DNA from: an uncultured Pirellulales bacterium
GTDB lineage: Bacteria > Planctomycetota > Phycisphaerae > Sedimentisphaerales > Anaerobacaceae
Direction of reading: 5' to 3'
Length of the DNA stretch: 56,841 nt
NCBI GenBank assembly: GCA_964397675.1
Contig: CAYNKI010000001.1
Location: 1-56,841 of the forward strand
Of the stretch, positions 108-56,430 are shown piece by piece. Under the pieces are notes generated by a model. It did not search any database. It saw only the letters and a program-made list of their open reading frames with translations, and was not told where the DNA came from. The translations under genes and the position numbers were made by a program. Numbering within the stretch: the first letter of the stretch is position 1; each line of letters begins with the position of its first letter.

Positions 108-125
108 TCCCGATGTACATCGGGA
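108..125. repeat. PAL-A TCCCGATGTACATCGGGA
   Basis: Perfect. Intergenic, 83 nt upstream of the flgB sigma54 promoter. Confidence 0.95.
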
Positions 126-208
126 CAATAGGTGATTATCCTGGTCTAAGGCTATTTCTCGAATCAATTAATCGGTTAATAGGCTGAAAGTAACCAGCTT
201 CGATGATC

Positions 209-223
209 TGGCACGATTATTGC
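209..223 (+). promoter_or_regulatory. sigma54 (-24/-12) promoter of the flgB operon
   Basis: TGGCACgattaTTGC matches TGGCAC-N5-TTGC exactly. It lies 33 nt upstream of the preferred flgB start. Confidence 0.8.
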
Positions 224-255
224 TTACGTTCTTAAAGAATCAGGAGAAAACAGAA

Positions 256-630
256 GTGCCTAAGACAAGCAACATAGTAGATTTGCTCGAGGCTGGGATA
301 AAAGCAGAAGGCCTTCGCCAAAAGGCTATCGCCAGTAATATCGCTAACCTCGAAACCCCCGGATACCGCAGAATTGATGTCAGGTTCGAAGAGTTACTGG
401 CAAAGGCCCTGGGCTCATCCGGGGCGGTTGATCCCGAAGTGCTTCGGGATAAAATTGAGCCACTGCTTCATAAGCCAAAACAGACACCAGTAAAGTCAAA
501 TGGTAATGATGTAAACCTGGAGACTGAGGTGGGAGAAATGGTTAAAAATACCCTTCGGCACACGGCATACATTCGGCTGCTCAACAAAAAGTACAGTCAA
601 ATTGTATCGGCTATAAACACAAAAACGTAA
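256..630 (+). CDS. flgB: flagellar basal-body rod protein FlgB
   Basis: ORF 220..630 with rod-family motif SNIANLETPGYRR. I moved the start to the in-frame GTG at 256 (AGGAG at 242-246) because TTG 220 lies inside the sigma54 promoter. Carries PAL-B at 432-449, read as PEVLRD. Confidence 0.9.
   Translation: MPKTSNIVDLLEAGIKAEGLRQKAIASNIANLETPGYRRIDVRFEELLAKALGSSGAVDPEVLRDKIEPLLHKPKQTPVKSNGNDVNLETEVGEMVKNTLRHTAYIRLLNKKYSQIVSAINTKT
432..449. repeat. PAL-B, centre GTGC
   Basis: TCCCGAAGTGCTTCGGGA in flgB (PEVLRD). Confidence 0.9.
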
Positions 631-655
631 CTTTGTTAGTGAGTGAGCGAAATAG

Positions 656-1060
656 ATGGATGTAAATGATATCTTCGGCCCCATAGATATAGCGGTCTCG
701 GGTCTGCGGGCTCAGGGCAAGAATATGGAAGTGATCTCGTCGAATGTTGCCAATGCCCGCACCACCGATGCTGGCAAGGGCGAACCCTACCGCAGACTCG
801 AGGCCGTCCTCGAAGCAGACGATGATGGCATAAGCAGTGTTACCGTGGAAGATATTGTGAAAGATATGGGAGATTTCCAGAGGTTATTTGACCCTGGTAA
901 TCCTATGGCGGACGAACAGGGATATGTGGTAATGCCCAATGTAAATTTGCCCATTGAGATGATGAACCTGGCTGTCGCCTCTCGTGCGTATCAGGCCAAT
1001 GCAGCAATTCTTAAACGTTATCAGCAAATGGTGGAAACCACGCTCGAATTACTACGATAA
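656..1060 (+). CDS. flgC: flagellar basal-body rod protein FlgC
   Basis: SNVANARTT N-terminal motif and a C-terminal rod-family block (RAYQANAAILK). Position after flgB. Confidence 0.9.
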   Translation: MDVNDIFGPIDIAVSGLRAQGKNMEVISSNVANARTTDAGKGEPYRRLEAVLEADDDGISSVTVEDIVKDMGDFQRLFDPGNPMADEQGYVVMPNVNLPIEMMNLAVASRAYQANAAILKRYQQMVETTLELLR

Positions 1061-1069
1061 GAAAGGGAC

Positions 1070-1405
1070 ATGATGGTCAACTTAAACGCCAATGTAAATT
1101 CAGTCCCGAAGTACTTCGGGACTAATAAACCGCTGCCACAAGCGAATAATCCCGAAGTACTTCGAGACACCGAAAAGACAGATTTCACTAAAACTGTTGA
1201 AGCTGTCGGGAAATACATATCCAAGGTTGATAACCTTCAGCAATCATCAGATATGTCAATTGCGGATTTATTGGCCGGCAAAAATGTGGATATTACGTCT
1301 GTAGTTTCATCGGTAGCTAAAGCTGATATGAGCTTCAAACTTCTTGTAGGTGTTAGAAATAAGCTAATTGAAGCCTATAAACAAACAATGAATATGCCAT
1401 TATAA
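1070..1405 (+). CDS. fliE: flagellar hook-basal body complex protein FliE
   Basis: 111 aa between flgC and fliF. C-terminus VRNKLIEAYKQTMNM is FliE-like. Carries two PAL-B copies (PKYFGT, PEVLRD). Confidence 0.8.
   Translation: MMVNLNANVNSVPKYFGTNKPLPQANNPEVLRDTEKTDFTKTVEAVGKYISKVDNLQQSSDMSIADLLAGKNVDITSVVSSVAKADMSFKLLVGVRNKLIEAYKQTMNMPL
1104..1121. repeat. PAL-B TCCCGAAGTACTTCGGGA
   Basis: Perfect, in fliE (PKYFGT). Confidence 0.95.
1150..1167. repeat. PAL-B, 1 mismatch
   Basis: TCCCGAAGTACTTCGAGA in fliE (PEVLRD). Confidence 0.8.
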
Positions 1406-1410
1406 GTTCT

Positions 1411-1476
1411 GAGTTCATTGTTCATTGTTGATCGATGAACTACGAACTACGAACTATGAACTCATAACTATGAACT
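1411..1476. repeat. heptad hairpin (GTTCATT / GAACTAC units around ATCGAT)
   Basis: fliE|fliF junction. GAGTTCATTGTTCATTGTTGATCGATGAACTACGAACTACGAACTATGAAC... Confidence 0.85.
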
Positions 1477-4005: not shown

Positions 4006-4563
4006 ATGGCTGATCCACTTACAATAAATCTTACCAAGCCGATAAAATCAGCAAAAATCCTGGACGACTACAATCCCGATGTACATCGGGACTCGGGACT
4101 CGATACTCGTCAACAATCGAGAAAGGAGGCGGAGATTGTGCAGCTTTGCCAGACACTCAACTGCCTGCTGGGTGAAGTTAATCGGTTTTATGACGAGGCA
4201 TTGGCCAAGAACAAAGACGAAATTGCCAAGCTTTCAGTGGAAATCGCAAACAAAATATTGATGCAAAAAGTACAAAAGGGAGACTACCAAATCGAATCGA
4301 TTGTCAAAGAAGCCCTTCAAAAGGCTCCCACGCGTCAGGATGTGGTGGTGCACTTGAATCCAGAGGACCTGTCTCAATGCCAATCCCGATGTACATCGGG
4401 ACAGCAGGACGACCCCGGTAGCGCCCTTGCCAGTATCAAGTTTGTTGCAGACCAAAGTGTTGGACGGGCAGAATGCCTGCTTGAGACACCAAAGGGAATA
4501 ATCAAATCGTTCATCGATGAACACATGGAACGAATTAGTGAAGCTCTTAAGAAGGTGGAATAG
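4006..4563 (+). CDS. fliH: flagellar assembly protein FliH
   Basis: 185 aa between fliG and fliI with a FliH-like C-terminal block. Two PAL-A copies (PDVHRD, RCTSG). Confidence 0.75.
   Translation: MADPLTINLTKPIKSAKILDDYNPDVHRDSGLDTRQQSRKEAEIVQLCQTLNCLLGEVNRFYDEALAKNKDEIAKLSVEIANKILMQKVQKGDYQIESIVKEALQKAPTRQDVVVHLNPEDLSQCQSRCTSGQQDDPGSALASIKFVADQSVGRAECLLETPKGIIKSFIDEHMERISEALKKVE
4074..4091. repeat. PAL-A
   Basis: Perfect, in fliH (PDVHRD). Confidence 0.95.
4384..4401. repeat. PAL-A
   Basis: Perfect, in fliH (RCTSG). Confidence 0.95.
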
Positions 4564-5941: not shown

Positions 5942-6397
5942 ATGAAACGATTTAAGTGGAGGTTGCAGCGTGTTCTTGACATCAAAGCCAGGCAGGAACA
6001 GACAAAGAGGGAAGAATTATTAAAAATAACAGAAAAATTAGCTCAAACGCGAGGACAATTACTTATTCAGCAGAGGATACTTCAGAACATAGCATTGGAT
6101 ATAGCTCGAAAAAAGCCAAAGAAGCGATTAGGCGAACAAGAGTTTTTTCTAAAATATTCTGCGTCAAGTGATAAACAAATTAAGAATCTAAAAGATGGAG
6201 TAAGTGAGCTCGAAACACAACAAAGAAAGAAAATTGCTGAAGTAATAAAGGCCAGACAATTTAAGGAAGGTTTGGAAAGATTACTAGCCGAGGCCAAAAA
6301 ACGATTTATGACCGAACAAGAGAAATTAGAACAGAAAAAATTGGATGAAGGAGCCACCGTGTCATTTGCCCGGAAGAGAATAGTTCATAGTCTATGA
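5942..6397 (+). CDS. fliJ: flagellar export protein FliJ
   Basis: 151-aa coiled-coil protein immediately after fliI. N-terminal FKWRLQRVLDIK pattern is typical of FliJ. Confidence 0.75.
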   Translation: MKRFKWRLQRVLDIKARQEQTKREELLKITEKLAQTRGQLLIQQRILQNIALDIARKKPKKRLGEQEFFLKYSASSDKQIKNLKDGVSELETQQRKKIAEVIKARQFKEGLERLLAEAKKRFMTEQEKLEQKKLDEGATVSFARKRIVHSL

Positions 6398-6418
6398 ACA
6401 ATAAACTACGAACTATGA
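6383..6418. repeat. heptad hairpin, same family
   Basis: GTTCATAGTCTATGAACAATAAACTACGAACTATGAG, spanning the fliJ stop. Confidence 0.75.
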
Positions 6419-6438
6419 GCTGATTTAGGAGAAACACA

Positions 6439-7218
6439 GTGAAAAAGAAGCTCATAATAATGATTGCAGCGGCAGGCCTGATAAGCTTTGCAGGGACATT
6501 TGCCTTTGCATGGTTAACCAAGCCAGCTCCAACAAGACCACCTAATGAGCCGAATCAATCAGTCCACGTTGGGCGGACCGACCAGCAAAATGAGCTGTTA
6601 GGGCCAGAAGTCGACACCCCGAAGTACTTCGGGACCGGCGACAGCAATCCGCCGGGGCGGGCAATCCCTGCCTCCGCAGGGGTAAACTTGTCCCCGCGAA
6701 AGCGGGGAACAACTATGATGGAAAATCAGCTCAAGAATCTTATCTATGAAGTCCAGGAAAAGATGAAAGAGTATAACGATAAGCTGCAAAGTCTCCAGAC
6801 GCGGGAACAGAGGCTGCAGATGGCTCAGGAAACGTTAAAAAAAGACATCGAAAACCTCAATAATCTACGAATCGAATTGGCTTCAACTGTTGCCCGTCTC
6901 AAAAATGAGCGAGATAAGTTAGCCAAAAGCAGGGTTGAGATTGCCCAAGCTGAAAAGGTCAACTTAGTTAAAATAGCAGCCGCTTATGACAAGATGGATT
7001 CTGCCAGTGCCGGCAAAATATTGACCAATATGTGCAACAGCCAGGCCCAAAGTGCAGACTCCGCAAGTGAAGAGAAAAACATGAATGATGCAGTTAAGAT
7101 TTTGCACTATATGAGTGAAAGAACTAAGGCAAATTTGTTAGCTGAATTAGCCAATTCTCAACCGGATCTTGCAGCGGATCTGTGTGGGAAGCTGAAACAA
7201 ATAACAGAAGGAAAATAG
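6439..7218 (+). CDS. flagellar protein with MgtE-N-like domain (YlxF/FlbB-type)
   Basis: GTG start with GGAG upstream. N-terminal TM, coiled coil, and a C-terminal block (AAAYDKMDSASAGKILTNM...AVKILHYMSERTKANLLAELA) resembling the MgtE-N fold of YlxF, which follows fliJ in Bacillus. Hosts PAL-B (PKYFGT) and a GC hairpin (SPRKRG). Confidence 0.5.
   Translation: MKKKLIIMIAAAGLISFAGTFAFAWLTKPAPTRPPNEPNQSVHVGRTDQQNELLGPEVDTPKYFGTGDSNPPGRAIPASAGVNLSPRKRGTTMMENQLKNLIYEVQEKMKEYNDKLQSLQTREQRLQMAQETLKKDIENLNNLRIELASTVARLKNERDKLAKSRVEIAQAEKVNLVKIAAAYDKMDSASAGKILTNMCNSQAQSADSASEEKNMNDAVKILHYMSERTKANLLAELANSQPDLAADLCGKLKQITEGK
6617..6634. repeat. PAL-B
   Basis: CCCCGAAGTACTTCGGGA in the ylxF-like gene (PKYFGT). 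Confidence 0.9.
6691..6708. repeat. GC hairpin family 2 (CCCCGC-N4-GCGGGG)
   Basis: TCCCCGCGAAAGCGGGGA in the ylxF-like gene (SPRKRG). Confidence 0.85.
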
Positions 7219-7221: not shown

Positions 7222-7992
7222 ATGGATGTTGCCACGATAGTAGGAGTGGTTCTCGGCTTTATAGTCATTACCAGCGCTATTGTCGCCGGCGGTGGCTGGC
7301 AAATGTTTATTCATATCCCCTCAATGGCGATCACCGTGGGGGGAATGCTGTGCGCTACGCTTATACATTTTTCACTGCCACAGTTTCTGGGAATATTCTC
7401 AATAATCAAAAAAACAATTGTCGCAAAAATACCATCGCAGTCGGAATTAATTCAAAATATGGTTAATTACGCAGCTATCAACAGACGTGATGGAGCGTTA
7501 GCTCTGGAACAAGAGATTCGCAATACAAATGATTTGTTTTTAGGAAAGAGTTTGCAAATGCTTGTGGATGGGAAAGAACCCACAGATATTCGGGATCTTT
7601 TGTCCCTGGAGGTCCAAAACCTCCAGGATCGTCATGCCGGAGGTAAAAAGATTCTTGAATTTATGGGAGCAGCAGCTCCTGCCTTTGGGATGATAGGGAC
7701 ACTCATTGGCCTAATCCAGATGTTAAGAAACCTGGATTCTCCTAAATCAATAGGTTCCGGAATGGCAGTAGCTTTGCTTACAACTTTTTATGGAGCATTG
7801 ACAGCTAATTTGATTTTTCTGCCATTAGCAGGTAAATTAGGAATTTATTCCAAAGCAGAGACCACCACAATGGAGATGATCATAGAGGGCATCTGTGCCA
7901 TTGCACGTGGTGAGAATCCAACCGTTGTTCGCGAAAAACTACAAGCATTTATTTCCCAGGGCAGACGGGAAGAAGTAAAGGCCACCGTGTAG
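7222..7992 (+). CDS. motA: flagellar stator protein MotA
   Basis: Four TM segments. MotA/TolQ/ExbB signature GAAAPAFGMIGTLIGLIQML. Confidence 0.9.
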   Translation: MDVATIVGVVLGFIVITSAIVAGGGWQMFIHIPSMAITVGGMLCATLIHFSLPQFLGIFSIIKKTIVAKIPSQSELIQNMVNYAAINRRDGALALEQEIRNTNDLFLGKSLQMLVDGKEPTDIRDLLSLEVQNLQDRHAGGKKILEFMGAAAPAFGMIGTLIGLIQMLRNLDSPKSIGSGMAVALLTTFYGALTANLIFLPLAGKLGIYSKAETTTMEMIIEGICAIARGENPTVVREKLQAFISQGRREEVKATV

Positions 7993-8060
7993 AATTAAAA
8001 AATAAAGGAGTCCCTAAGGGATGACTCCCTTAATTTTAAATTTTGATATTTAATTTTTAC
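7993..8060. repeat. composite A/T-heptad hairpin element (short left arm)
   Basis: motA|motB junction. Core GGAGTCCCTAAGGGATGACTCC, right arm CTTAATTTTAAATTTTGATATTTAATTTTTAC. Confidence 0.7.
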
Positions 8061-8062
8061 GC

Positions 8063-8794
8063 TTGATAGTGTTTCGTACAAAAGAACAATCAGAACCGGA
8101 CGGACCCACAGGTGCACCGGAATGGATGGTAACTTTCAGCGACTGTATGACGCTGCTGTTGACGTTCTTCGTGCTGTTGTTGAGTTTCTCATCCTTTGAT
8201 GATAAAATTTTTCAGAAGTTAAAAGTGATTTTCTCCAATGCCCTGCCTGCGGTTAGCCAGCAAGACAAACAAGGAAAAGATGCTTTTTTGGCCACGCAGC
8301 AAATTCAACATACAGAGGATATTAGCGAAGGCAGTGAAAAACCAACTTTAGAAAAAGGAATGCAGGACCACCTAAAGCAAGAATCAGAGCCAATAGATTT
8401 CCGTAGCCGGAAGGTATTTTTAATCTCATCGGAGAAGATTTTTTGGGGTAAGGGGACCGCTATTTCTCTTCAAGGTCGTGAGGCTTTAGCCACTATAGCA
8501 TCATTCTTAAAACAAATACCCAACCGGGTAGTGATTAGTGAATGTCCCGCGAATCGCAAATCGCAAATCGCAAATCGCGACGTGTCACAGGCGATAAGCG
8601 ATTCGCAAATTGGTCTGCAGAGAGCTTGGGCGGTGGTGGAGTATCTGGTAAAAAAACAGCACCTCGACAAAAATTGGTTCAGCATCTCAGCAGCGAGCAC
8701 TGTGCCTCAAGAGAGCTTTGAAAGCGGTAAGCAGGCAGAGGAAACTAAACGAGTACTTGAGATTGTTTTATTGGAACGGAGCATTTACCATTGA
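8063..8794 (+). CDS. motB: MotB-like stator protein, paralogue 1
   Basis: N-terminal TM with the conserved Asp (MVTFSDCMTLLLTFFVLLL). Weak OmpA-like C-terminus (LQRAWAVVEYL). The TTG start is uncertain. Heptad repeat 8549-8582 is translated as ANRKSQIANRD. Confidence 0.7.
   Translation: MIVFRTKEQSEPDGPTGAPEWMVTFSDCMTLLLTFFVLLLSFSSFDDKIFQKLKVIFSNALPAVSQQDKQGKDAFLATQQIQHTEDISEGSEKPTLEKGMQDHLKQESEPIDFRSRKVFLISSEKIFWGKGTAISLQGREALATIASFLKQIPNRVVISECPANRKSQIANRDVSQAISDSQIGLQRAWAVVEYLVKKQHLDKNWFSISAASTVPQESFESGKQAEETKRVLEIVLLERSIYH
8549..8582. repeat. tandem heptads (AATCGCA x4)
   Basis: Inside motB paralogue 1. Confidence 0.85.
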
Positions 8795-42457: not shown

Positions 42458-42459
42458 CA

Positions 42460-47561: not shown

Positions 47562-47579
47562 TCCCGAAGTGCTTCGGGA
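47562..47579. repeat. PAL-B, centre GTGC
   Basis: Intergenic between activator 2 and fliL. Confidence 0.9.
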
Positions 47580-47601: not shown

Positions 47602-48252
47602 ATGGCAGACAAAAAAAATGCAGAAAAACTCGTTCCTGCGAAGGCCGAGGCCGTAGCGGGGCAAAAAAAACTGGAGCAGCAAAAGTTCGATGAGGCCTCC
47701 GAAAAGGTTGATCCCCAGAAGGCCACGGCAGGCAGCCGCAGGCAGTGGATAATAATTGCTGTTGTTGTGGTTGTCTGCGCCGGTACCGGCTTTGGACTCG
47801 GTCGTTTATTTGGCTGGTCCGGTAGTAGCAAAATAGCTGAACCTTCCCAATCTCAACAAACAGAATCAAATCACACACAGCTATTCGAAAAAGATAGTGA
47901 TGCCACGGATTCAGCATCCCAAAGTACTTCGGGATGGTTCTACGACTTTGACCCTGTGGTGGCAAATCTTAATGAGCCGAGCGTAACGCGCTACATTCGA
48001 GTGGCACTGACACTGCAAATAAGTACTGAATTGGACCAAAAAAAGCTCTCCGCTTTTATTGAGGAAAAGAAGCCGCTCTTGAAAAATTGGCTTACCATTT
48101 ACCTTGCAAATCAGACCCTTGAAGATATTCGAGGTGACAGGAATCTTCTGCGTATTCAATCAGAAATATTGGATGCTTTTAATGAAAGACTTTTCCCTGA
48201 TGCCAAACCTAAAATTAAGAACGTTCTTTTTAGTGAATTCGCTGTACAATGA
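47602..48252 (+). CDS. fliL: flagellar basal body-associated protein FliL
   Basis: Single TM and a FliL-type C-terminal domain (FDPVVANLNE...YIRVALTLQ...LRIQSEILDAFNERL). Precedes fliM. Confidence 0.8.
   Translation: MADKKNAEKLVPAKAEAVAGQKKLEQQKFDEASEKVDPQKATAGSRRQWIIIAVVVVVCAGTGFGLGRLFGWSGSSKIAEPSQSQQTESNHTQLFEKDSDATDSASQSTSGWFYDFDPVVANLNEPSVTRYIRVALTLQISTELDQKKLSAFIEEKKPLLKNWLTIYLANQTLEDIRGDRNLLRIQSEILDAFNERLFPDAKPKIKNVLFSEFAVQ
47917..47934. repeat. PAL-B, 1 mismatch
   Basis: TCCCAAAGTACTTCGGGA in fliL (QSTSG). Confidence 0.8.
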
Positions 48253-49355
48253 GTAATGGCGTTGCTAACAATTTAAGTAGAGAAAATATTCGAAAGCTTC
48301 TCGCTGCTATAGGCTCTGGGCCAGCAGAAGATACACAAATAGAAGTCTCTGAGTATGATTGGCATCAGCCTCATTATTTTAGTAGCAGCCAGCTCAACAG
48401 ACTTGATAATTTCACAGAGAAAATAGCCGCAGCAATAGCTGAAACATTTTCTCAGCTTTATCACAATGATTTTAATGTCACTATTACTTCGAACACCCAG
48501 CACTTTGCCAGTGAGCTTTTCGAACAAGTATTAAACAGTGGACAAAACGATTATTACCTGGCATTTGGCACCGATCAGGAACATCTATGTGGACTCATTG
48601 ACGTACCCCAGCAAACGGCAGTTACCTGGACAAAGCAATTGCTCGGTGATGACGAATCTGAAAAAGATACAGGGGACACCACATCACAGCCCGACCCCGA
48701 TGTACATCGGGGCTCATCCCGAAGTGCTTCGGGATTATCGCAACTGGAAGAATCCCTTTTGTTCGACATTGTCTCAGCAATCGTGTCCCAATGTACCCCG
48801 ATGTCCATCGGGGATTTGCAGCCGGTCTCTGAACTTGTCAAAGGCCAGTTGCCCATCAAGCTGTCCACCACTCCCGATTTTAAATCGGGACTACAACCCG
48901 TACAAGAAATCAGTAAGATTGTTTTTAGCATCGAAAAAGCCTCCTCTGCCGACGACAAGCCCGCAGCAGCCTGTGAAGCTTACCTTTTAATACCTTGCAG
49001 CAGACTGGCACCTGCCGTGGGAAAAATCATAGAAGCTGATAAAAATCCCAATGTACATCGGGATGATGATATCTCAAAAGCGATACTTGAGCATCTACAG
49101 CAAATGCCGGTTTCTGTTACGGCTCAATTGGCGGTTGCTGTGCTTACTTTTGAACAGATAATTAGCCTTAGCCCTTATGATATATTGTTACTTGATAAAG
49201 CGATCAATGAACCGATTGAATTGGTTGTTGAAGGCCGAACAGTTCTTCGTGGTCAGCCCACAAAATCGGCTGGCCAGCACGCTATTGTGTTCACAGAGGT
49301 CCCAATGTACAGCGGGACAAAAGCTAAATCACAGGCATTAAATGACTTGACATGA
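48249..49355 (+). CDS. fliM: flagellar motor switch protein FliM
   Basis: N-terminus LSRENIRKLL and a C-terminal SpoA-type domain (VTAQLAVAVLTFEQIISLSPYDILLLDK...ELVVEGRTVLRGQP). Five PAL copies plus one stem-variant hairpin in the middle domain. Confidence 0.8.
   Translation: MSNGVANNLSRENIRKLLAAIGSGPAEDTQIEVSEYDWHQPHYFSSSQLNRLDNFTEKIAAAIAETFSQLYHNDFNVTITSNTQHFASELFEQVLNSGQNDYYLAFGTDQEHLCGLIDVPQQTAVTWTKQLLGDDESEKDTGDTTSQPDPDVHRGSSRSASGLSQLEESLLFDIVSAIVSQCTPMSIGDLQPVSELVKGQLPIKLSTTPDFKSGLQPVQEISKIVFSIEKASSADDKPAAACEAYLLIPCSRLAPAVGKIIEADKNPNVHRDDDISKAILEHLQQMPVSVTAQLAVAVLTFEQIISLSPYDILLLDKAINEPIELVVEGRTVLRGQPTKSAGQHAIVFTEVPMYSGTKAKSQALNDLT
48695..48712. repeat. PAL-A with C..G outer pair
   Basis: In fliM (PDVHRG). 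A PAL-B copy follows 4 nt downstream. Confidence 0.95.
48717..48734. repeat. PAL-B, centre GTGC
   Basis: In fliM (RSASG). Confidence 0.9.
48796..48813. repeat. PAL-A, centre GTCC
   Basis: CCCCGATGTCCATCGGGG in fliM (PMSIGD). Confidence 0.8.
48872..48890. repeat. PAL stem with a different loop
   Basis: TCCCGATTTTAAATCGGGA in fliM (PDFKSG). Confidence 0.7.
49046..49063. repeat. PAL-A, 1 mismatch
   Basis: TCCCAATGTACATCGGGA in fliM (PNVHRD). Confidence 0.8.
49300..49317. repeat. PAL-A, 2 mismatches
   Basis: TCCCAATGTACAGCGGGA in fliM (PMYSGT). Confidence 0.65.
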
Positions 49356-49370: not shown

Positions 49371-49826
49371 ATGGCAAAAGCAGCTAAAGCAACAGAAGAA
49401 AAAGCTCATCCCGATGTACATCGGGATCAACCATCACAGGATGATACCTCACAAGCTGACTCTAAAAAGCAGGTACAGGCGGTTGATTTTCCAGAGGCCC
49501 CGATGCCCATCGGGGAATCTTCAGGTTCGGGCGGCAAATTAGACATCATACTGGATATGAACGTGCCTGTTACCATTGCCATTGGACAAACGGAGATACC
49601 AGTCCGGAGACTTTTGCAACTTGGCCCCGGCTCAGTATTGAAGCTCGGTAAACCTATTGATGAACCAGCTGATTTGTACTTGAAGGACGCTAAGTTTGCT
49701 ACAGGGGACGTAGTAGTAGTAGACGGCCGGTTCGCCGTCAGAATAAAACAGGTTATTGGCGGGACCCCGGATAGCGAGAATCCCGCAGGTAGCGCTTCCG
49801 ATCCCGATGTACATCGGGATAGCTGA
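49371..49826 (+). CDS. fliN: flagellar motor switch protein FliN
   Basis: SpoA domain ILDMNVPVTIAIGQTEIPVRRLLQLGPGSVLKLGKPIDEPADLYLKDAKFATGDVVVVDGRFAVRIKQVI. Three PAL copies in the N- and C-terminal tails. Confidence 0.9.
   Translation: MAKAAKATEEKAHPDVHRDQPSQDDTSQADSKKQVQAVDFPEAPMPIGESSGSGGKLDIILDMNVPVTIAIGQTEIPVRRLLQLGPGSVLKLGKPIDEPADLYLKDAKFATGDVVVVDGRFAVRIKQVIGGTPDSENPAGSASDPDVHRDS
49409..49426. repeat. PAL-A
   Basis: Perfect, in the fliN N-terminal tail (PDVHRD). Confidence 0.95.
49498..49515. repeat. PAL-A, centre GCCC
   Basis: CCCCGATGCCCATCGGGG in fliN (PMPIGE). Confidence 0.8.
49802..49819. repeat. PAL-A
   Basis: Perfect. Encodes the last residues of fliN (PDVHRD-S-stop). Confidence 0.95.
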
Positions 49827-49846: not shown

Positions 49847-49864
49847 CCCCGATGTACATCGGGG
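49847..49864. repeat. PAL-A with C..G outer pair, followed by a partial duplication GTACATCGG
   Basis: Lies between fliN and flhA. Confidence 0.9.
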
Positions 49865-49897: not shown

Positions 49898-52108
49898 ATG
49901 GCAGGCTCTGTAAGGCCGAATTTAGTCCCAATGTCCAACGGGACCGATAATTTGCAAAAGCTAACAACTCCCCGCCTTCGCGGGGACAATCCCAATGATT
50001 CTATCGGGATTAATACACCTCTGGCCTCCCACAGCAATATTATTTTGGTTTTGGGCCTGGTGACAGTTCTTGCCACTCTCATAATTCCCCTGCCTACGCT
50101 ATTGATGGATATGCTTTTAGCCTGTAGTATCTCATTGGCGGTAGCCGTATTAATCATTACATTGTCATCAAAAGAGGCCCTCGATTTATCCACCTTCCCT
50201 TCGTTGCTTCTTTTCGTGACATTATTTCGCCTCTCTCTTAACGTGGCCTCGACCAGATTGATCCTTCTACAGGCCGATGCGGGGAAAATTATCCAGACTT
50301 TCGGTAGTTTCGTTGCCGGCGGCAGCCTTGTCGTCGGACTTGTAATTTTCTTAATTCTTGTTGTTATTCAGTTCATAGTAATCACAAAAGGTGCCGAGCG
50401 AATAAGCGAGGTATCTGCTCGCTTTACTCTCGATGCTATGCCCGGCAAGCAGATGGCCATCGATGCAGACCTAAACGCCGGCACTATTACCGAGGCCCAG
50501 GCTAACACACGCAGATCCAAAATTGTCAAAGAAAGCGAATTCTATGGTGCCATGGATGGTGCCAGCAAGTTCATTCGTGGAGATGCCAAAGCCGGGCTGA
50601 TAATTACCGCGGTCAATATAATTGGCGGCATGGCTATGGGCTATTCTCGAGGTATGACTGTTGCCAACGCTGTAAAAACTTATTCTATTCTATCCATCGG
50701 TGATGGCTTAGTCAGCCAGATACCATCGATAATCATCTCTGTCAGCTCAGGCTTTTTGGTGACCAAAATCTCATCGAGCCGGAGCGTCGGCCAGGACCTC
50801 TCCAAGCAGTTTCTTAAAACCAGTCAACCGTTGATGACAGCCGCTTTCGTCATTGGCTTGATGGCATTGGTGCCTGGTTTACCTAAGGTGCCTTTTATAC
50901 TTTTAGCCATCGGGACCGCTTTGATCGGACGAATGACTGCTCAATCCGAGAAGGACCGCAAGAAATCAATTACGCCTGTACCCCAAAAAGCTGAAAAAGA
51001 ACCAGTTGAACAACTCCTGGACGTCGATAGAGTTTCAGTGCGTGTCGGCGTGCGACTGATTAGCATGGTGGACCCTCGTAAAAATAATACCATCTTTGAG
51101 CGTATTGGGGCACTGCGCAGGGGTTTTGCGCACCAGCTTGGAATCATTATCCCATTAGTGCGTTTGCGGGACGATATCAATCTCGAGCCAAGCGTTTATG
51201 AGATTAGGCTCTCAGAGATACCAATAGCGAAGGGGCGGTTAGAACCCGATATGTATCTGGCGATGGATCCAGGCACCGTCCAAAACAAAGTAGCCGGTAT
51301 TGAAACTGCCGAACCTGTTTATGGATTACCCGCCCTCTGGATCACAAAAGATAACAAAGAAAAAGCAGAGTTAAATGGATATACCGTAATCGATCCTGAA
51401 TCCGTCTTTATTACACACCTGTCCGAAACTCTAAAAAAACACGTTGATGAATTGCTAACCCGTGAGGATGTGCAGCTTCTTGTAGATAGACTTCGCAAGG
51501 AACAACCTTCATTAGTTGGAGAAGTTGTTGGTGCTGATGGCCAAGTGCCTATTGGATTGCTTCAACGTGTGCTGAAAAACCTCTTAAAGGACGGAATCCC
51601 GATCCGTGAATTAACCATTATACTTGAATCGTTGTCGGAAAACGCTCCAAAAACTAAAAACATCGCTGCATTAACAGAGTTAGTTCGAAAATCCTTAAGC
51701 AGAACGATTACCGAGCAGTATAAAGACGAGACCGGTAAAATTTCGGCTATAACACTGGAGCCCTCATTCGAACATCATATAACTTCTATTTTGCGGCAGG
51801 AAGCAGACCACATTACCCTGGCCTTACCAACCGAGACGGCGATGCAGATAAGTAGAAAAATCGCACAAGCCTGGAAAGCAACGATGGACAACGGCAAAGA
51901 CAAAGTGGTTATGCTATGCGATTCGAGATTGCGCTCGCCCTTAGCGACCATGTTATCACGTACAGTGCCATTGCTGCCGGTTATAGCTTATGACGAAATC
52001 GTGCTTGGGACCGAAGTAGAACCCATAGAAACTATAACCGTTCAGCTCACTGAATCCACGGTGGCCAAAGAACAAGAGTTGGTCGGAGTTTTACCAGAAG
52101 TGAGCTAA
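49898..52108 (+). CDS. flhA: flagellar export apparatus protein FlhA
   Basis: ORF 49874..52108, with ATG 49898 preferred (GAAGGA 7 nt upstream). FHIPEP motifs (ERISEVSARFTLDAMPGKQMAIDADL). Large cytoplasmic C-terminal domain. Confidence 0.95.
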   Translation: MAGSVRPNLVPMSNGTDNLQKLTTPRLRGDNPNDSIGINTPLASHSNIILVLGLVTVLATLIIPLPTLLMDMLLACSISLAVAVLIITLSSKEALDLSTFPSLLLFVTLFRLSLNVASTRLILLQADAGKIIQTFGSFVAGGSLVVGLVIFLILVVIQFIVITKGAERISEVSARFTLDAMPGKQMAIDADLNAGTITEAQANTRRSKIVKESEFYGAMDGASKFIRGDAKAGLIITAVNIIGGMAMGYSRGMTVANAVKTYSILSIGDGLVSQIPSIIISVSSGFLVTKISSSRSVGQDLSKQFLKTSQPLMTAAFVIGLMALVPGLPKVPFILLAIGTALIGRMTAQSEKDRKKSITPVPQKAEKEPVEQLLDVDRVSVRVGVRLISMVDPRKNNTIFERIGALRRGFAHQLGIIIPLVRLRDDINLEPSVYEIRLSEIPIAKGRLEPDMYLAMDPGTVQNKVAGIETAEPVYGLPALWITKDNKEKAELNGYTVIDPESVFITHLSETLKKHVDELLTREDVQLLVDRLRKEQPSLVGEVVGADGQVPIGLLQRVLKNLLKDGIPIRELTIILESLSENAPKTKNIAALTELVRKSLSRTITEQYKDETGKISAITLEPSFEHHITSILRQEADHITLALPTETAMQISRKIAQAWKATMDNGKDKVVMLCDSRLRSPLATMLSRTVPLLPVIAYDEIVLGTEVEPIETITVQLTESTVAKEQELVGVLPEVS
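49926..49943. repeat. PAL-A, degenerate
   Basis: TCCCAATGTCCAACGGGA in the flhA N-terminus (PMSNGT). Confidence 0.55.
49968..49985. repeat. GC hairpin family 2
   Basis: TCCCCGCCTTCGCGGGGA in the flhA N-terminus (PRLRGD). Confidence 0.8.
49989..50008. repeat. PAL stem, degenerate, longer loop
   Basis: TCCCAATGATTCTATCGGGA in the flhA N-terminus (NPNDSIGI). Confidence 0.5.
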
Positions 52109-52401: not shown

Positions 52402-53299
52402 AAATACTCCTGTGAGCTCCCGTTCCACGAGGGCTGAGCGGCATACCACAGGACCAGAGTGGCAGCCTCAATCCCGATGTACTTCGGGATTGAGGATGGA
52501 CGATGGACGACAGACGACAGACGACGGATGTTGCAGCACAGAGCACCTAAAGGTCGTGGCGCTGCGCACATACGCAGGCCCAAAAAAATCCGCCACCGGC
52601 GGGCTTGACGATGAACAGATAGCCCAGTTTCTGCCATTGGTTCACAAAATAGCTCGCCGGGTGACGACATATCTTAAACCTCCTTTGCTATTTGAGGATT
52701 TGATCTCAGCAGGCACGATTGGATTGGTTAAAGCTGCACATGATTTCGATTCATCTCACCAGGCCAAATTTAAGACTTACGCTTATATTCGGATAAAAGG
52801 AGCCATTCTTGACGAGTTGAGAAGTTCATCTTTACTGCCTGCAAATCTTAATAAGCAGCTTCGAAACGCTCGTCGGCTTTGTCAAGAAATCACTGAGCGG
52901 ACAGGCATAGCGCCCAGTGATGAAGAGTTGGCTGAGAAACTTGGAATAACAGTTAATGAAGTTTATGCCCTGTTTGAGGTGGCACGCGCCCAGTATTTTG
53001 TCTCTATTGACGAGTTTACTGGGGAACAATCCTCCCTGGACCATTTCTTGGCAGCAACCAACACAGCCACTCCCGATAAACAGCTTGAACAAGCTGAGCT
53101 GGTAGATAAATTAACTGAGGCCATACGGCAGTTAGACCAGAGGCGACGGCAGATTATTTTGCTTTATTACCAACAAGGCCTAACGATGAAGCAGATAGCC
53201 GGCCTTTTGAAGGTTACCGAATCACGTATCAGCCAGCTGCACGTAAGTGCTATATTCAATTTATCTGTAAAATTGAGGAAATGGAAAGATGGCAGATAG
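52385..53299 (+). CDS. fliA: flagellar sigma factor FliA (sigma28)
   Basis: Region 2 (DLISAGTIGLVKAAHDFD...FKTYAYIRIKGAILDELR) and region 4.2 (LYYQQGLTMKQIAGLLKVTESRISQLH). The start is uncertain because the first ~55 codons are made of nested repeats. GTG 52385 and ATG ~52496 are both possible. Confidence 0.85.
   Translation: MTVRTENTPVSSRSTRAERHTTGPEWQPQSRCTSGLRMDDGRQTTDDGCCSTEHLKVVALRTYAGPKKSATGGLDDEQIAQFLPLVHKIARRVTTYLKPPLLFEDLISAGTIGLVKAAHDFDSSHQAKFKTYAYIRIKGAILDELRSSSLLPANLNKQLRNARRLCQEITERTGIAPSDEELAEKLGITVNEVYALFEVARAQYFVSIDEFTGEQSSLDHFLAATNTATPDKQLEQAELVDKLTEAIRQLDQRRRQIILLYYQQGLTMKQIAGLLKVTESRISQLHVSAIFNLSVKLRKWKDGR
52472..52489. repeat. PAL A/B hybrid nested in a longer stem (52466-52495)
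   Basis: CCTCAATCCCGATGTACTTCGGGATTGAGG in the fliA 5' region (RCTSG). Confidence 0.85.
52494..52530. repeat. tandem heptads (GGACGAT / GACGACA)
   Basis: In the fliA 5' region, immediately after the nested PAL. Confidence 0.75.
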
Positions 53300-53537: not shown

Positions 53538-53792
53538 ATGGATGAAGCGGTAGGACACATTCTAAAAAGTGAGGAGGTCAAGCTCGAAGGCCGAGTTCAA
53601 CTCGATGAGGTCCAGTCGCAGACCGCCAAAGGCGGACCAAAAGAGAGGAAAGAGGTCTCGGCCATAAAGCAGGTGAGCATCTTAGAAAACCACCCTGAAT
53701 TCGCCGTTATAGAGGTAACCTGCTGTTGTGGTGAGAGAATATATTTAAGGTGTGATTATGCTGGTCAAGAAAGTCAAAAAATTAAAGATTAA
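53538..53792 (+). CDS. small Cys-containing protein, unknown
   Basis: 84 aa with motif FAVIEVTCCCGERIYLRCDY. The last codons and the stop lie in the left arm of a composite repeat. Confidence 0.35.
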   Translation: MDEAVGHILKSEEVKLEGRVQLDEVQSQTAKGGPKERKEVSAIKQVSILENHPEFAVIEVTCCCGERIYLRCDYAGQESQKIKD

Positions 53793-53800
53793 AAATCAAA

Positions 53801-53818
53801 TCCCGATGTACATCGGGA
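53801..53818. repeat. PAL-A
   Basis: Perfect. Occupies the core of composite element 53770-53880. Confidence 0.95.
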
Positions 53819-53835
53819 CCCGAAGTGCTTCGGGA
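53818..53835. repeat. PAL-B, centre GTGC
   Basis: ACCCGAAGTGCTTCGGGA, abutting the PAL-A copy in the same composite core. Confidence 0.85.
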
Positions 53836-53902
53836 TGACTTCCTTAATTTTACATTTTGATATTTGATATTTAATTTTGGGAAAGATGATTGGAGAAAAA
53901 CA

Positions 53903-54505: not shown

Positions 54506-54516
54506 TGTCGAAAAAC

Positions 54517-54598
54517 AATGCAAAAATCAAAAATTAAAAATCAAAATTGTGGTCTCGATGTACATCAGGATTGCATTTTGCATTTTGACTTTTGATCT
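54517..54598. repeat. composite A/T-heptad hairpin element with degenerate PAL-A as core
   Basis: CAAAAATCAAAAATTAAAAATCAAAATTGTGG - TCTCGATGTACATCAGGA - TTGCATTTTGCATTTTGACTTTTGAT. Confidence 0.8.
54553..54570. repeat. PAL-A, degenerate
   Basis: TCTCGATGTACATCAGGA in the core of composite element 54517-54598. Its ATG is the candidate lipoprotein start. Confidence 0.6.
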
Positions 54599-55196
54599 GT
54601 TTATTCTTATGTCAGGCTGCCGATTCTACACAGACTCTAAGCCGATGACCGATTGTTATTACCTTAATCCTGACAAACAATTGTCTACTATTGGCAGGGT
54701 TACTCTTATTGAGCTGGACAACTATTCCAGTTATCCGCAAATTTCCGCTGATGTAACCGAAGCACTTTTTCTGGCATTACAAAAAAAACATCTTTTTGGC
54801 TTAACTCATATCGAGCAGAATGACCCTGCGTGGCACAGTTTACAATTAGACTTAGAGACAACTTACAACCTTGAACAACTATTATCAATCCATAAGACAT
54901 TAAAATGCGATGCTGTATTGATTGGCACTGTAACCAAATATCAGCCCTATCCTCATATGGCCATCGGCCTACGCATGAGGCTTTTAGACCTGAAAGAAGG
55001 GCAATTACTATGGGCTTTGGAACAAGTTTGGGATAGCGCCGATAAAAATACCGAATCCCGGATAAAAGACTACTTCCAACATCATATGCGATCCGGCACT
55101 GCATCTTTGCGCGAACAGATAGTAGTTGTCAGCTCGCTTAAGTTTCTCAAATTTGTAGCTTATGAGGTTGCAGAAACATTACAACCCACAAGATAA
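54558..55196 (+). CDS. lipoprotein (TolB-N/LpoB/FlgO-like fold is only a guess)
   Basis: Distal part of ORF 54321..55196. MYIRIAFCILTFDLFILMSGC is a plausible lipoprotein signal peptide. The ATG lies in a degenerate PAL and the h-region lies in the repeat arm. ATG 54498 is an alternative start. Confidence 0.5.
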   Translation: MYIRIAFCILTFDLFILMSGCRFYTDSKPMTDCYYLNPDKQLSTIGRVTLIELDNYSSYPQISADVTEALFLALQKKHLFGLTHIEQNDPAWHSLQLDLETTYNLEQLLSIHKTLKCDAVLIGTVTKYQPYPHMAIGLRMRLLDLKEGQLLWALEQVWDSADKNTESRIKDYFQHHMRSGTASLREQIVVVSSLKFLKFVAYEVAETLQPTR

Positions 55197-55226
55197 AATG
55201 GTGAAAATAGGTTTTTCCGAAAACAA

Positions 55227-55242
55227 TCCCGATAAATCGGGA
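55227..55242. repeat. PAL stem with a different loop
   Basis: TCCCGATAAATCGGGA, intergenic upstream of the flgM-like gene. Confidence 0.7.
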
Positions 55243-55336
55243 CCAAGGCGGACAAAAATTCAGCAAAAAGCTTAAGTTTTGTAGAAAATGTGCGAAAAGG
55301 ATTATAGATTGAAGGTTTTGAAGGAATGTTTATGCA

Positions 55337-55612
55337 ATGATTGATAAAATATATATTAACCACTCCCAATGTACATCGGGATTGCAAAAATCGCCGTCCA
55401 AGCAGCCTGATTCTACCAAGATTCCCCCAAATAATAGCGCGGATGTGTCCTTGCAGGTCGATTATATCCGTTTAATTAACCAAGCAATACAAGTTCCTCA
55501 AACTGATACAGAAGCCGTCCAACGAGCGCAAGAATTGCTACGGTCCGGTAAGCTGGAAAGTCCGGAATATACTCGAAAAGCCGCAAAGAACATCATAACA
55601 TCCGGTATATAA
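55337..55612 (+). CDS. flgM: anti-sigma28 factor FlgM-like (tentative)
   Basis: 91 aa. The C-terminus AVQRAQELLRSGKLESPEYTRKAAKNII resembles the FlgM C-terminal helix pattern. AAGGAA RBS. A degenerate PAL-A reads QCTSG. Confidence 0.45.
   Translation: MIDKIYINHSQCTSGLQKSPSKQPDSTKIPPNNSADVSLQVDYIRLINQAIQVPQTDTEAVQRAQELLRSGKLESPEYTRKAAKNIITSGI
55364..55381. repeat. PAL-A, 1 mismatch
   Basis: TCCCAATGTACATCGGGA in the flgM-like gene (QCTSG). Confidence 0.8.
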
Positions 55613-55616
55613 AAGC

Positions 55617-55648
55617 CAAAGTGAGCTAAAGTGACACGAAGTGTCATT
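55617..55648. repeat. TAAAGTG-heptad element with small hairpin TGACAC-GAA-GTGTCA
   Basis: Lies after the flgM-like stop. Shares an exact 17-mer with 52098-52114. Confidence 0.7.
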
Positions 55649-55665
55649 GCGAGGAGCGCAGCGAC

Positions 55666-56133
55666 GTGCCAATCTCCTTACTAACGAACAAATTCAAAAA
55701 GCTTTGGAAATATTACTTCCTACAAAGCGCATTGGCCGCCGCTATCTTATCCGTCCTGGTTGTTATTCTGGGCAAGGAAAAAATAGTCTTGATCAGCACA
55801 ATGGGGGCGACAATTTTTATCTTATTTGCAATGCCCACGAATGTCTCCGCTAAAACAAGAAATGTTGTCGGTGGCCATCTCGTCGGCCTTGCCTCTGGAG
55901 CTATATTCTGTTTCATTATTCTACCCTATTTCCTTAGTTATCCCCTCGCAGTTGGAATCGCAATATTGCTTATGGTGGCTTTAGACTTTGAACATCCTCC
56001 AGCCGTGGGCACAACTTTGGCTGTTCTAATAAATGAGGTTTCTCTCGATGCCTTCATCACTATAATGTTAAGCGCGTTAGTACTGACCCAATGTCGATAT
56101 TACCTGAGACACTACTTAAAGGATCTGGTATAG
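55666..56133 (+). CDS. HPP-family membrane protein
   Basis: Four TM segments and a literal HPP motif (DFEHPPAVGTTLAVL). Confidence 0.7.
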   Translation: MPISLLTNKFKKLWKYYFLQSALAAAILSVLVVILGKEKIVLISTMGATIFILFAMPTNVSAKTRNVVGGHLVGLASGAIFCFIILPYFLSYPLAVGIAILLMVALDFEHPPAVGTTLAVLINEVSLDAFITIMLSALVLTQCRYYLRHYLKDLV

Positions 56134-56181
56134 ATTGTTCTGCTCTACTTAGGGCCCAGTCGTAAATAACAAGCTTGAGCC

Positions 56182-56430
56182 TCAAACGTAACAATCAAGA
56201 ATCTGTCCCATCATTCGATTATCAAGAGCCGCTTTTGAGATGTCTAATGAACGCGTATAGGTGGCCGAATTGCTGATAGGCTTGACATCCCGAAGTACTT
56301 CGGGATTCACAACGACAGCACAATCTCTGCGGTAGCATTTATTTTTGGGCTGACCTAAATACATTGACGGATTGGTGGCTTTTGTAAAAGGAAAAGAATT
56401 GATAACTTTACATGAGATCCGCTTCGTCAT
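56182..56430 (-). CDS. hypothetical protein (weak call)
   Basis: 82-aa ORF with no motif. Contains PAL-B read as PEVLRD. Confidence 0.2.
   Translation of the reverse strand: MTKRISCKVINSFPFTKATNPSMYLGQPKNKCYRRDCAVVVNPEVLRDVKPISNSATYTRSLDISKAALDNRMMGQILDCYV
56288..56305. repeat. PAL-B
   Basis: Perfect, in the weak ORF 56182..56430 (PEVLRD). Confidence 0.95.

Follow-up and report, generated by a model that had tools for sequence, protein, structure and literature searches.

An 18-bp palindromic hairpin repeated in frame across the flagellar gene cluster of an uncultured planctomycete

Introduction

How does a flagellar gene cluster come to hold dozens of copies of one short palindrome, most of them inside genes, with the host reading frames still open? 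The question is raised by contig CAYNKI010000001.1 of assembly GCA_964397675.1, a stretch of 56,841 nucleotides (called the window throughout) from an uncultured bacterium deposited as Pirellulales and placed by GTDB in the Sedimentisphaerales (Phycisphaerae, Planctomycetota). The window is a flagellar gene cluster of 44.3% GC, and its repeated element, which we call PAL, comes in two 18-bp palindromic forms, PAL-A (TCCCGATGTACATCGGGA) and PAL-B (TCCCGAAGTACTTCGGGA). With slightly better than even confidence, we propose that PAL is a very small, non-autonomous DNA hairpin of a kind resembling repetitive extragenic palindromes (REPs), and that a recent burst multiplied it in one sediment planctomycete lineage of the Phycisphaerae/Sedimentisphaerales type.

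Anatomy and copy number of the element

PAL-A occurs exactly 16 times in the window and PAL-B six times, against no exact copy in 100 dinucleotide-preserving shuffles. When a copy is defined as a match to either form with at most three mismatches, the window holds 58, spanning positions 108–56305, and these divide into 22 with no mismatch, 18 with one, 14 with two and 4 with three. At the same threshold 895 kb of related DNA gives 4 sites, a background of about 0.25 per window. The initial annotation had counted about 59 by eye, which is close; its third FliN copy, at 49498, proves to have the same stem with another loop (CCCCGATGCCCATCGGGG), and is one of four additional hairpins in the window that join the PAL stem to different loops.

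The variation among copies identifies the unit. At stem pair 1/18, 45 copies have T-A and 11 have C-G; at pair 7/12, 37 have T-A and 15 have A-T. Each of the four possible combinations occurs, and one-sided exceptions are rare. Loop positions 9 and 10 vary one-sidedly, giving the loops GTGC, GCAC and GTCC. Because changes in the stem are compensated and the loop is free to change on one side, PAL is a hairpin, with a 7-bp stem TCCCGA(T/A) and a 4-nt loop GTAC, rather than a dyad for the binding of a protein dimer. Its predicted fold has an energy of -9.7 kcal/mol as RNA and -6.5 kcal/mol as DNA. Outside the stem, bias is limited to the adjoining bases, with a purine at -1 in 50 of the 58 copies and a pyrimidine at +1 in 50; as these two positions do not covary they are not part of the stem, and the flanked element can be written R-TCCCGAWGTACWTCGGGA-Y.

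These patterns bear on the idea that PAL is a functional site in duplex DNA, for example an operator (of the sigma-54 activators, among others), a nucleoid or segregation site, a methylase or restriction target of the kind suggested for HIP1, or an uptake signal enriched by biased uptake. The perfect dyad is of operator size and contains GTAC, TGTACA and AGTACT, which are known restriction enzyme sites, and copies are concentrated in the flagellar cluster, absent from its 14 kb of flanks, and as dense as the uptake signal sequences (USS) and DNA uptake sequences (DUS) of other bacteria. Compensated half-site changes and one-sided variation at the centre are, however, what a hairpin would lead one to expect, the sites arose by insertion with a change of length and not by substitution, relatives that have the same regulators have none, and no conserved neighbouring gene surrounds the 18-mer in other phyla. 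We therefore consider a duplex site very improbable.

Forty of the 58 copies have at most one mismatch and decayed copies are almost absent, so the burst appears to be young. Non-palindromic variants are unevenly distributed between the strands: counted on the plus strand, the loop GTGC occurs 10 times and GCAC twice, and G5>A five times with no mirrored C14>T. Such an asymmetry would fit strand-specific, replication-coupled insertion, a weak hint given the small numbers. In the two copies within minus-strand genes the bias of non-palindromic variants is unchanged.

Support from independent assemblies

The same locus is found, 99.7–100% identical and with its palindromes, in the JGI assemblies 3300028837, 3300008516 and 3300008517 and in ENA ERZ25073496, so that an earlier concern over misassembly is met by four independent metagenome assemblies. 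Only one difference among them touches PAL: in the ENA contig L208 (L208 674, window 48696–48717), 22 nt are missing between the adjacent copies at 48695 and 48717. The deletion spans a CCCGA direct repeat and, by shifting the frame, splits fliM into two open reading frames (ORFs). It could be a genuine event in a strain, mediated by the palindromes, or an error of low coverage (5x).

An artefact of the assembly or library, or else a conserved protein motif, is an explanation of PAL to which we give practically no credence. Other genomes with the 18-mer are mostly metagenome bins, as an artefact might have it; against this, the four assemblies come from three studies and agree base for base, and the 18-mer is also carried by an isolate genome, that of Flavobacterium stagni. 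Host ORFs are kept open, conserved residues are avoided, mutated versions exist and target bases are replaced. PAL is moreover read in three frames and occurs in no orthologue.

Gain in a single lineage

For comparison we used 80 related loci (895,447 nt in total) from a metagenome scan with FliI, at 80–90% FliI identity; FliM homologues are labelled Sedimentisphaerales, Phycisphaerae or Planctomycetota. These flagellar loci contain no PAL copy and no other iterated hairpin. Aligned with their orthologues, the host proteins show the PAL hexapeptides as additions in variable segments, and the peptides occur in no orthologue, in agreement with the earlier suggestion that they are lineage-specific insertions. 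The orthologous spots in relatives have a mean minimum mismatch to PAL of 9.1, compared with 8.9 for background segments of the same genes. As they are no closer to PAL than background, the copies are neither decayed remnants of shared ancestors nor products of conversion guided by pre-existing similarity, and both possibilities are ruled out at 12 sites. The comparison shows that PAL copies arose de novo, in genes and in spacers alike, once this lineage had separated from every relative sampled.

A closer sister contig, L209 (FliM 61% identical), has a copy of its own, CCCCGATATCCATCGGGG at L209 3196, with another loop. It lies in the same FliM loop as a window copy, a few codons off and in a different frame, and is therefore an independent event. 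Relatives in general carry sparse hairpins, about 0.01–0.02 per kb, with the outer stem of PAL and other loops. The stem family is thus old in the clade, and the GTAC-loop form multiplied explosively in this lineage. Another related contig, L210, has hairpins with the CCCGA/TCGGG stem and other loops at 11273 (in FliN), 15718 and 15988, the first at approximately the same place as window 49498 and in a different frame. An apparent RSASG match in L210 FliA was rejected as a shared copy, the DNA there not being palindrome-like.

The insertion footprint

Where flanking residues anchor the alignment tightly, the length gained can be read directly. It is four residues in FlgB at residue 71 (DPEVLRD, in 14 of 15 comparisons with relatives; a PAL-B with loop GTGC at 432–449), in FliH at residue 127 (SRCTSG, 13 of 15; an exact PAL-A at 4384–4401 that replaces a conserved K-L, AAACTG), in FlhB at residue 68 (TPMYIGG, 12 of 15; a PAL-A with C..G ends at 12658–12675), in FliR at residue 48 (IPMYIGT; an exact PAL-A at 11776–11793) and, from the codon alignment, in FliE at residue 27 (NPEVLRD; a PAL-B with one mismatch at 1150–1167). 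It is three residues in FliM at residue 266 (NPNVHRD; a PAL-A with G5>A at 49046–49063), in an 828-residue TPR protein at residue 342, relative to L210 (APMYIGA; a PAL-A with C..G ends and three mismatches at 43592–43609), and in the FliM copy of L209. A clean gain of six occurs at none of the tightly anchored sites. Since the net change is +4 or +3 and not +6, 6–9 nt of target are lost for each 18 nt gained, and the earlier view that exactly six codons are added has to be given up.

The same footprint is seen free of any reading-frame constraint in a non-coding repeat of about 190 nt on the Sedimentisphaerales chromosome OY763926.1, whose empty copy reads GG-TGAATA-TTCACG and two other copies GG-CCCCGAAGTACATCGGGG-TTCACG, 18 nt having replaced 6. 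As the flanking R and Y are present in empty sites, they belong to the target. In two AT-rich, terminator-like repeats of the window a longer native hairpin region, of 27–38 nt, has been replaced, in one by an exact PAL-A (53801–53818, intergenic) together with an abutting PAL-B with loop GTGC (53818–53835), in the other by a degenerate copy (54553–54570, nominally residue 19 of a 232-residue ORF). From these alignments, the typical event is 18 nt in and 6 nt out at R|N6|Y, sometimes with at least 9 nt out. To our knowledge, no known transposition chemistry gives such a footprint, which is the main puzzle that PAL poses. The dispersed repeat of about 190 nt, which has no Rfam hit, occurs with and without PAL (L006 3853 and L064 6979 versus L110 4333–4507).

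Loss of target and a missing enzyme keep alive an origin through repair or replication accidents for which no dedicated transposase is needed, the filler or template being supplied by a copy already present or by an abundant hairpin oligonucleotide. Such accidents (template switching where forks stall, or capture at double-strand breaks that undergo some resection) might replace a short and variable piece of target, and the recorded losses (6 nt at no fewer than five coding sites and at one non-coding site of another genome, 9 nt at three sites, 27–38 nt at the two terminator-like repeats) have some of that character. Copies can also recombine or slip, as the 22-nt deletion between adjacent ones indicates, and they cluster: copies per 2-kb bin are over-dispersed (variance/mean 2.2), and 10 spacings are below 80 nt where about 4 are expected, a perfect palindrome having no orientation by which doublets could be scored. 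Yet the targets had no prior similarity or microhomology to PAL, the flanks of different copies are unrelated, as they would not be after co-conversion, and neighbours are not of matching sub-type. A modal loss of exactly 6 nt looks enzymatic and not random, and recurrence of the same 18-mer with the same R/Y rule in distant phyla suggests a specific recognizing activity. On balance we judge such an origin to be unlikely.

Placement in genes and spacers

Called ORFs contain 46 of the 58 copies, or 42 when doubtful small ORFs are set aside (72–79%), and every host ORF is open, much as the initial annotation had it in placing about three quarters of the copies in unbroken genes. Its list of hosts is likewise confirmed by Pfam, which together with the gene calls of public assemblies identifies FlgB, FliE, FliF, FliH, MotB-like, FliP, FliR, FlhB, FlgN, FlgA, FliL, FliM, FliN, FlhA and FliA, two glycosyltransferase/TPR proteins, both sigma-54 activators and two TPR proteins. 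The three reading frames of PAL are used 11, 21 and 14 times, which does not differ from uniform use (p=0.18). With all frames used without preference and the identical sequence also present in spacers, PAL is an element of DNA; conservation at the nucleotide level, claimed earlier on the same grounds, stands. A protein motif is ruled out by three-frame reading, spacer copies and absence from orthologues.

All three frames in either orientation, and all junction codons, are free of stops, which extends the earlier remark that no frame contains one; the length of the unit is divisible by three. Being stop-free in every frame, junctions included, is what allows PAL to persist in ORFs. Among random 18-bp palindromes of the same GC content, 35% are stop-free internally and 11% are junction-safe as well; stop-freedom is a precondition for persistence and no sign of design.

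Copies are 3.4 times denser between genes (2.8 per kb) than within them (0.82 per kb; p=1.6e-4). Within proteins, 12 of 12 scorable sites lie in the least conserved 40% of the sequence, at a mean percentile of 0.19, and an AlphaFold2 model of FliM places each of its five copies in a loop, in the disordered linker or in the C-terminal tail, with a predicted local distance difference test score (pLDDT) below 50 where the segment is not a loop. Surviving copies are thus found where they do little harm: in spacers, frequently just after a stop codon, and in loops, linkers and termini that are disordered and poorly conserved. The density of about one per kb that had been supposed is not a general property. 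Three stretches of 6.7–12.3 kb have no copy: 12676–24960, which encodes a CxxCxxCC protein, FliD and a 2085-residue glycosyl/methyltransferase; 7.5 kb of sulfatase genes downstream; and 6.7 kb upstream with flagellin and FliS. FliK and a TPR gene just upstream hold six copies. A recent horizontal origin of the 12-kb stretch was considered and dropped, its GC content not being distinctive.

Seven of the 12 intergenic copies lie 3–24 nt past a stop codon, inside operons, a position that recalls a function in RNA. Hairpins might be kept, and perhaps spread, by stabilizing or processing polycistronic flagellar mRNAs, a role that REPs have at 3' ends, or by pausing ribosomes; the RNA fold is stable (-9.7 to -11.6 kcal/mol), its pairing is kept by compensatory changes, two copies directly follow a shared promoter-like motif (family D13), and PAL takes the place of the native hairpin in the two terminator-like repeats. 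The same operons of relatives nevertheless do without such a hairpin, and the five G5>A copies would put A.C mismatches into the sense RNA of plus-strand genes, lowering the fold to -4.1 kcal/mol. Rfam 15 gave no match that reached the gathering score, either for the window or for 18 loci from other genomes. A role in RNA would cover the retention of some intergenic copies, not their origin or the spread within genes, and we rate it as quite improbable.

The same 18-mer in other genomes

Our literature search found no paper containing the PAL sequence, in keeping with the earlier statement that no description was known, but the exact 18-mer is not private to this genome and occurs in many phyla. 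A scan with the 16-mer core, one genome per species, gave 113 stretches among the matches listed, diluted by chance hits; at least 44 sites in these have the full 18-mer with T..A ends, for which the chance expectation is 1 in 16. Seven contigs of IMG/VR, all of high GC and with 1–3 copies each, add 8 full 18-mer sites. Carriers among the matches listed include Prolixibacteraceae, Draconibacterium, Bacteroidales, Chitinophagaceae, the Flavobacterium stagni isolate, Fibrobacter, four Sedimentisphaerales bins, high-GC Planctomycetales, Patescibacteria, Dehalococcoidia (Chloroflexota) and others, with several bins having the 18-mer on several contigs. The flank rule recurs at the 52 sites listed, with a purine at -1 in 43 and a pyrimidine at +1 in 37. 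In the low-GC genomes among these matches the 18-mer lies mostly outside long ORFs, within local repeats that differ from one another.

Several candidate vehicles were sought and rejected. No linked transposase was found near the 18-mer elsewhere, the shared neighbours being ABC transporters and response regulators; a two-copy locus, L016, has no transposase inside that would make it an enclosing element; and sequenced plasmids and phages of isolates include no carrier. A protein search with a synthetic string of the hexapeptides returned no further proteins of this organism. In a Draconibacterium metagenome-assembled genome (L063 7799), a mixed A/B 18-mer, TCCCGATGTACTTCGGGA, lies in an apparent tRNA gene, directly after the D-arm sequence GCTCAGTTGGTTAGAGC.

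The breadth of this distribution invites a bolder reading, which we regard as doubtful. The 18-mer would be a complete, ultra-small, tag-less mobile hairpin, served by a horizontally travelling enzyme that cuts and replaces at R|N6|Y (6, sometimes 9 nt out and 18 in) across Planctomycetota, Bacteroidota, Fibrobacterota and candidate phyla, and in one lineage it would have remodelled dozens of loops in proteins of the flagellar motor and export gate and in regulators.

Individual copies and neighbouring repeats

The remaining copies are given here in window positions. At the start of the cluster an exact PAL-A (108–125) lies 95 nt upstream of flgB, an exact PAL-B (1104–1121) at residue 12 of FliE (VPKYFGT), an A/B hybrid with two mismatches (2361–2378) at residue 313 of FliF (SRSASG), and an exact PAL-A (4074–4091) at residue 23 of FliH (NPDVHRD), followed at 4092–4111 by TCGGGAC TCGGGAC TCGATAC. 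A PAL-B with C at position 1 (6617–6634) is read TPKYFGT at residue 60 of an uncharacterised 259-residue protein. Two tandem MotB-like genes follow motA at 8063–9606, and the second contains exact PAL-B copies at residues 165 (9284–9301, IPKYFGT) and 227 (9469–9486, SRSTSG). The signal-peptide region of FliP has a PAL-A with loop GTGC at residue 8 (10343–10360, IPMCIGT).

Downstream of the copy-free stretch, an exact PAL-B (24961–24978) is read SRSTSG at residue 370 of a GT2-TPR protein, and a PAL-A with one mismatch (27358–27375) LPMYIGT at residue 83 of a TPR-GT1 protein; an exact PAL-A (27765–27782) lies 24 nt past the flgL stop. The 2085-residue protein within that stretch (17221–23478, 6.3 kb without PAL) has three GT2 and two methyltransferase domains and TPR, adjoins fliD, and probably serves in flagellin glycosylation. 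FlgN carries a PAL-B with C..G ends at residue 175 (31215–31232, PRSTSG) and a PAL-A with C..G ends and loop GTGC at residue 129 (31352–31369, APMHIGD); a PAL-A with one mismatch (32119–32136) is at residue 21 of a 148-residue ORF at the FlgM position. FlgA has an exact PAL-A at residue 212 (34520–34537, SPDVHRE) and a degenerate copy with two mismatches at residue 173 (34638–34655, LPMSFGI). An uncharacterised 456-residue protein has a PAL-A with loop GTGC at residue 294 (37276–37293, IPMHIGT), and between its start and the flgE stop is an exact PAL-A (38161–38178).

The divergent spacer between flgD and activator 1 holds four copies: a PAL-A with C..G ends (40355–40372), an exact PAL-A (40582–40599), an exact PAL-B (40706–40723) and a PAL-A with one mismatch (40901–40918). 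In activator 1 itself, an exact PAL-A (42164–42181) is read SRCTSG at residue 403, in the linker before the helix-turn-helix, and a PAL-A with one mismatch (42220–42237) VADVHRD at residue 421; a PAL-A with loop GCAC (42460–42477) follows 3 nt past the stop. The 828-residue TPR protein has PAL-A copies with C..G ends at residues 17 (42617–42634) and 439 (43884–43901, DPDVHRG). A TPR-like protein of 285 residues has five PAL-A copies, one with loop GCAC at residue 20 (45109–45126), exact ones at residues 38 (45163–45180), 59 (45227–45244, HPDVHRD) and 234 (45751–45768), and one with one mismatch at residue 108 (45373–45390). Activator 2 has an exact PAL-A at residue 8 (45937–45954, NPDVHRD), a PAL-B with two mismatches at residue 118 in the receiver-AAA linker (46265–46282), a PAL-A with C..G ends at residue 133 (46312–46329) and, 20 nt past its stop, a PAL-B with loop GTGC (47562–47579).

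FliL has a PAL-B with G5>A at residue 106 (47917–47934, SQSTSG). Besides the copy at residue 266, FliM has a PAL-A with C..G ends at residue 149 in the disordered linker (48695–48712, lost with 22 nt in L208), a PAL-B with loop GTGC at residue 157 (48717–48734), a C..G-ended copy with loop GTCC at residue 183 (48796–48813) and a degenerate one in the C-terminal tail at residue 351 (49300–49317). FliN has exact PAL-A copies at residues 13 (49409–49426) and 144, the latter in its C-terminal tail (49802–49819), and between them the hairpin with loop GCCC (49498–49515, APMPIGE); a PAL-A with C..G ends (49847–49864) lies 21 nt past the fliN stop. The N-terminal extension of FlhA contains a degenerate copy with three mismatches at residue 18 (49926–49943), and FliA an A/B hybrid at residue 30 (52472–52489, SRCTSG). 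Last come a PAL-A with G5>A at residue 10 of a 91-residue ORF (55364–55381) and an exact PAL-B at residue 42 of an 82-residue ORF (56288–56305).

Other repeats share the window. The AT-rich, palindromic intergenic repeat of about 99 nt lies at 11145–11243, 11522–11620, 28998–29096, 40733–40831, 53770–53870 and 54511–54609, with a partial copy at 7960–8065. Between its A-rich arm and its T-rich arm lies a GC hairpin (GTTGCCGCTGTGCGGCAAC), for which compensatory variants exist, and the repeat by this build looks like a bidirectional intrinsic terminator or a MITE (miniature inverted-repeat transposable element); two of its copies are those in which PAL has replaced the central hairpin. Tandem heptamers, GAACTAC/GAACTAT, surround a palindromic centre (GTTCATCGATGAAC) in flagellar spacers at 1406–1479, 6391–6424 and 35980–36060. 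A common 36-nt motif (...GTATAGAATCCTGACAT...) at 69–104 and 42429–42464, upstream of flgB and of the TPR-828 gene, is directly 5' of two PAL copies and is possibly a promoter, which would place the hairpin at the 5' end of the transcript. A 42-nt repeat (TTGCCATCCCCAAGCTGCGCTTGAGGCTGCCACCCAGG...) occurs with 79–86% identity at 15–56, 31788–31829 and 47326–47367, one copy lying inside the C-terminal part of sigma-54 activator 2. Tandem 7-mers, (GGACGAT/GGACGAC)n, abut PAL at 46283–46305 (reverse complement, by 46265) and 52490–52530 (by 52472); since L210 orthologues also have GGACGA runs, these pre-date PAL.

Discussion

If PAL is a REP-like hairpin, its formation or recognition would take place in single-stranded DNA, and the enzyme that copies it in trans would have its gene elsewhere in the genome, our best guess being an HUH/Y1 nuclease of the kind of TnpA-REP (REP-associated tyrosine transposase, RAYT) or of IS200/IS605. 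The same enzyme-hairpin pair may have moved between phyla, a transfer that would account for finding an identical 18-mer in other genomes. For the host, the effects would be by-products, namely 3–6 extra residues in loops and mRNA hairpins (-9.7 kcal/mol), of which those between genes may stabilize 3' or 5' ends, and the copies would have been sieved by selection after the burst.

Several observations weigh against this proposal. The search for a RAYT/Y1 transposase suggested in the initial annotation was run on the 74 kb reached from this organism and found no transposase or HUH gene there. Neither GTAG nor CGTC, nor any tetranucleotide tag, accompanies PAL on either side in the flank matrix of the 58 copies. 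A loss of 6–9 nt of target would be unlike the action of IS200/IS605-type enzymes, which are not known for it. No gene family recurs beside the 18-mer in 54 loci of other genomes. The four assemblies, at 99.7–100% identity, show no insertion polymorphism, so that activity at present is not directly indicated. Adjacent copies share a sub-type no more often than chance would have it, and local hopping by sub-type thus left no signal. Finally, the distribution of copies is patchy; the copy-free stretches are almost wholly coding, and constraint may account for them.

If the proposal is true, PAL would be the smallest and most gene-invasive bacterial hairpin repeat described, having colonized the export gate (FliP, FliR, FlhB, FlhA), the switch (FliM, FliN), the MS ring, stator-like proteins and master regulators without breaking them. 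It would provide a natural insertion-tolerance map of the flagellar machinery and a clean case of selfish DNA generating variation in protein length. The exchange of 18 nt for 6, together with cross-phylum identity, would point to a copying activity outside textbook transposition chemistries. In practical terms, gene callers, domain models and assemblers can be led astray by repeats of this type when applied to uncultured planctomycetes.

Comparison with known systems

HIP1 (GCGATCGC) of cyanobacteria is a hyper-abundant palindrome, about one per kb within and between genes; it is 8 bp long, born by substitution without change of length, spread clade-wide and linked to methyltransferases and repair, whereas PAL is 18 bp, inserted (+3/+4 residues) and represented by no copy in 80 relatives. 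USS (Pasteurellaceae) and DUS (Neisseriaceae) also reach about one per kb in coding regions, in several frames and with enrichment at tolerant positions. They are non-palindromic, common to related species and derived from point mutation with uptake bias; PAL, by contrast, is a palindrome, absent from relatives, patchy and inserted.

Among mobile elements, MITEs differ from PAL, which has no internal sequence between inverted repeats and no target duplication, and is accompanied by loss of 6–9 nt. The subterminal hairpins of IS200/IS605 elements and of the derivatives that lack a transposase, palindrome-associated transposable elements (PATEs), like PAL, are hairpins, theirs being handled as single-stranded DNA; those elements have two different ends with cargo or longer arms, whereas PAL is one 18-nt hairpin. 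IS200/IS605 elements integrate 3' of a fixed tetra- or pentanucleotide and are not known to remove any target.

The Rickettsia palindromic element (RPE), as cited from Ogata et al. 2000 in PMC3733652, is a selfish palindromic repeat found in frame in functional, often essential genes, where surface loops tolerate it, and is the classic precedent for such in-frame insertion. PAL resembles it in being inserted in frame, located in loops and read in several frames, and differs in being an 18-bp element of a planctomycete, the RPE being a long imperfect palindrome restricted to Rickettsia with tens of copies per genome. RPE-1, at about 100–150 bp, adds tens of residues. Organelle coding sequence can be colonized by hairpin repeats too, as by the coding palindromes of Nematomorpha mitochondria (PMC6649704).

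The initial annotation likened PAL in concept to REPs, RPEs and HIP1, and the likeness to the first two stands; its statement that REPs are extragenic does not, for intragenic REPs are documented (PMC3733652). They are most abundant in Opitutus terrae, a bacterium of the Planctomycetes-Verrucomicrobia-Chlamydiae (PVC) group, in frame and in loops or termini (PMC3733652), which lowers the novelty of PAL. Perfect palindromes, which the HUH enzyme TnpA-REP processes as single-stranded DNA, also occur among REPs (PMC8266576). The REP super-families are defined by a conserved tetranucleotide, GTAG or CGTC, that stays unpaired at one end (PMC3733652; PMC8266576), in place of which PAL has R/Y flanks only. 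It differs further in its 18 nt, at or below the 20–40 bp quoted for REPs; in being 72–79% intragenic, though 3.4 times denser in spacers, with a local density of about one per kb; in its identity across phyla, where REP families are mostly species- or genus-specific; and in the 6–9 nt of target lost on insertion. REPs have a cognate TnpA-REP/RAYT gene, typically flanked by REPs, of which the 74 kb of the PAL host hold none. PAL thus fails on the tag as a REP proper and is REP-like in all that it shares with them: a short stem-loop (in REPs GC-rich, its stem 6–9 bp long and its loop 4 nt), dispersal in many copies, division into sub-families whose complementary stems differ, and a preference for the spacer just past genes.

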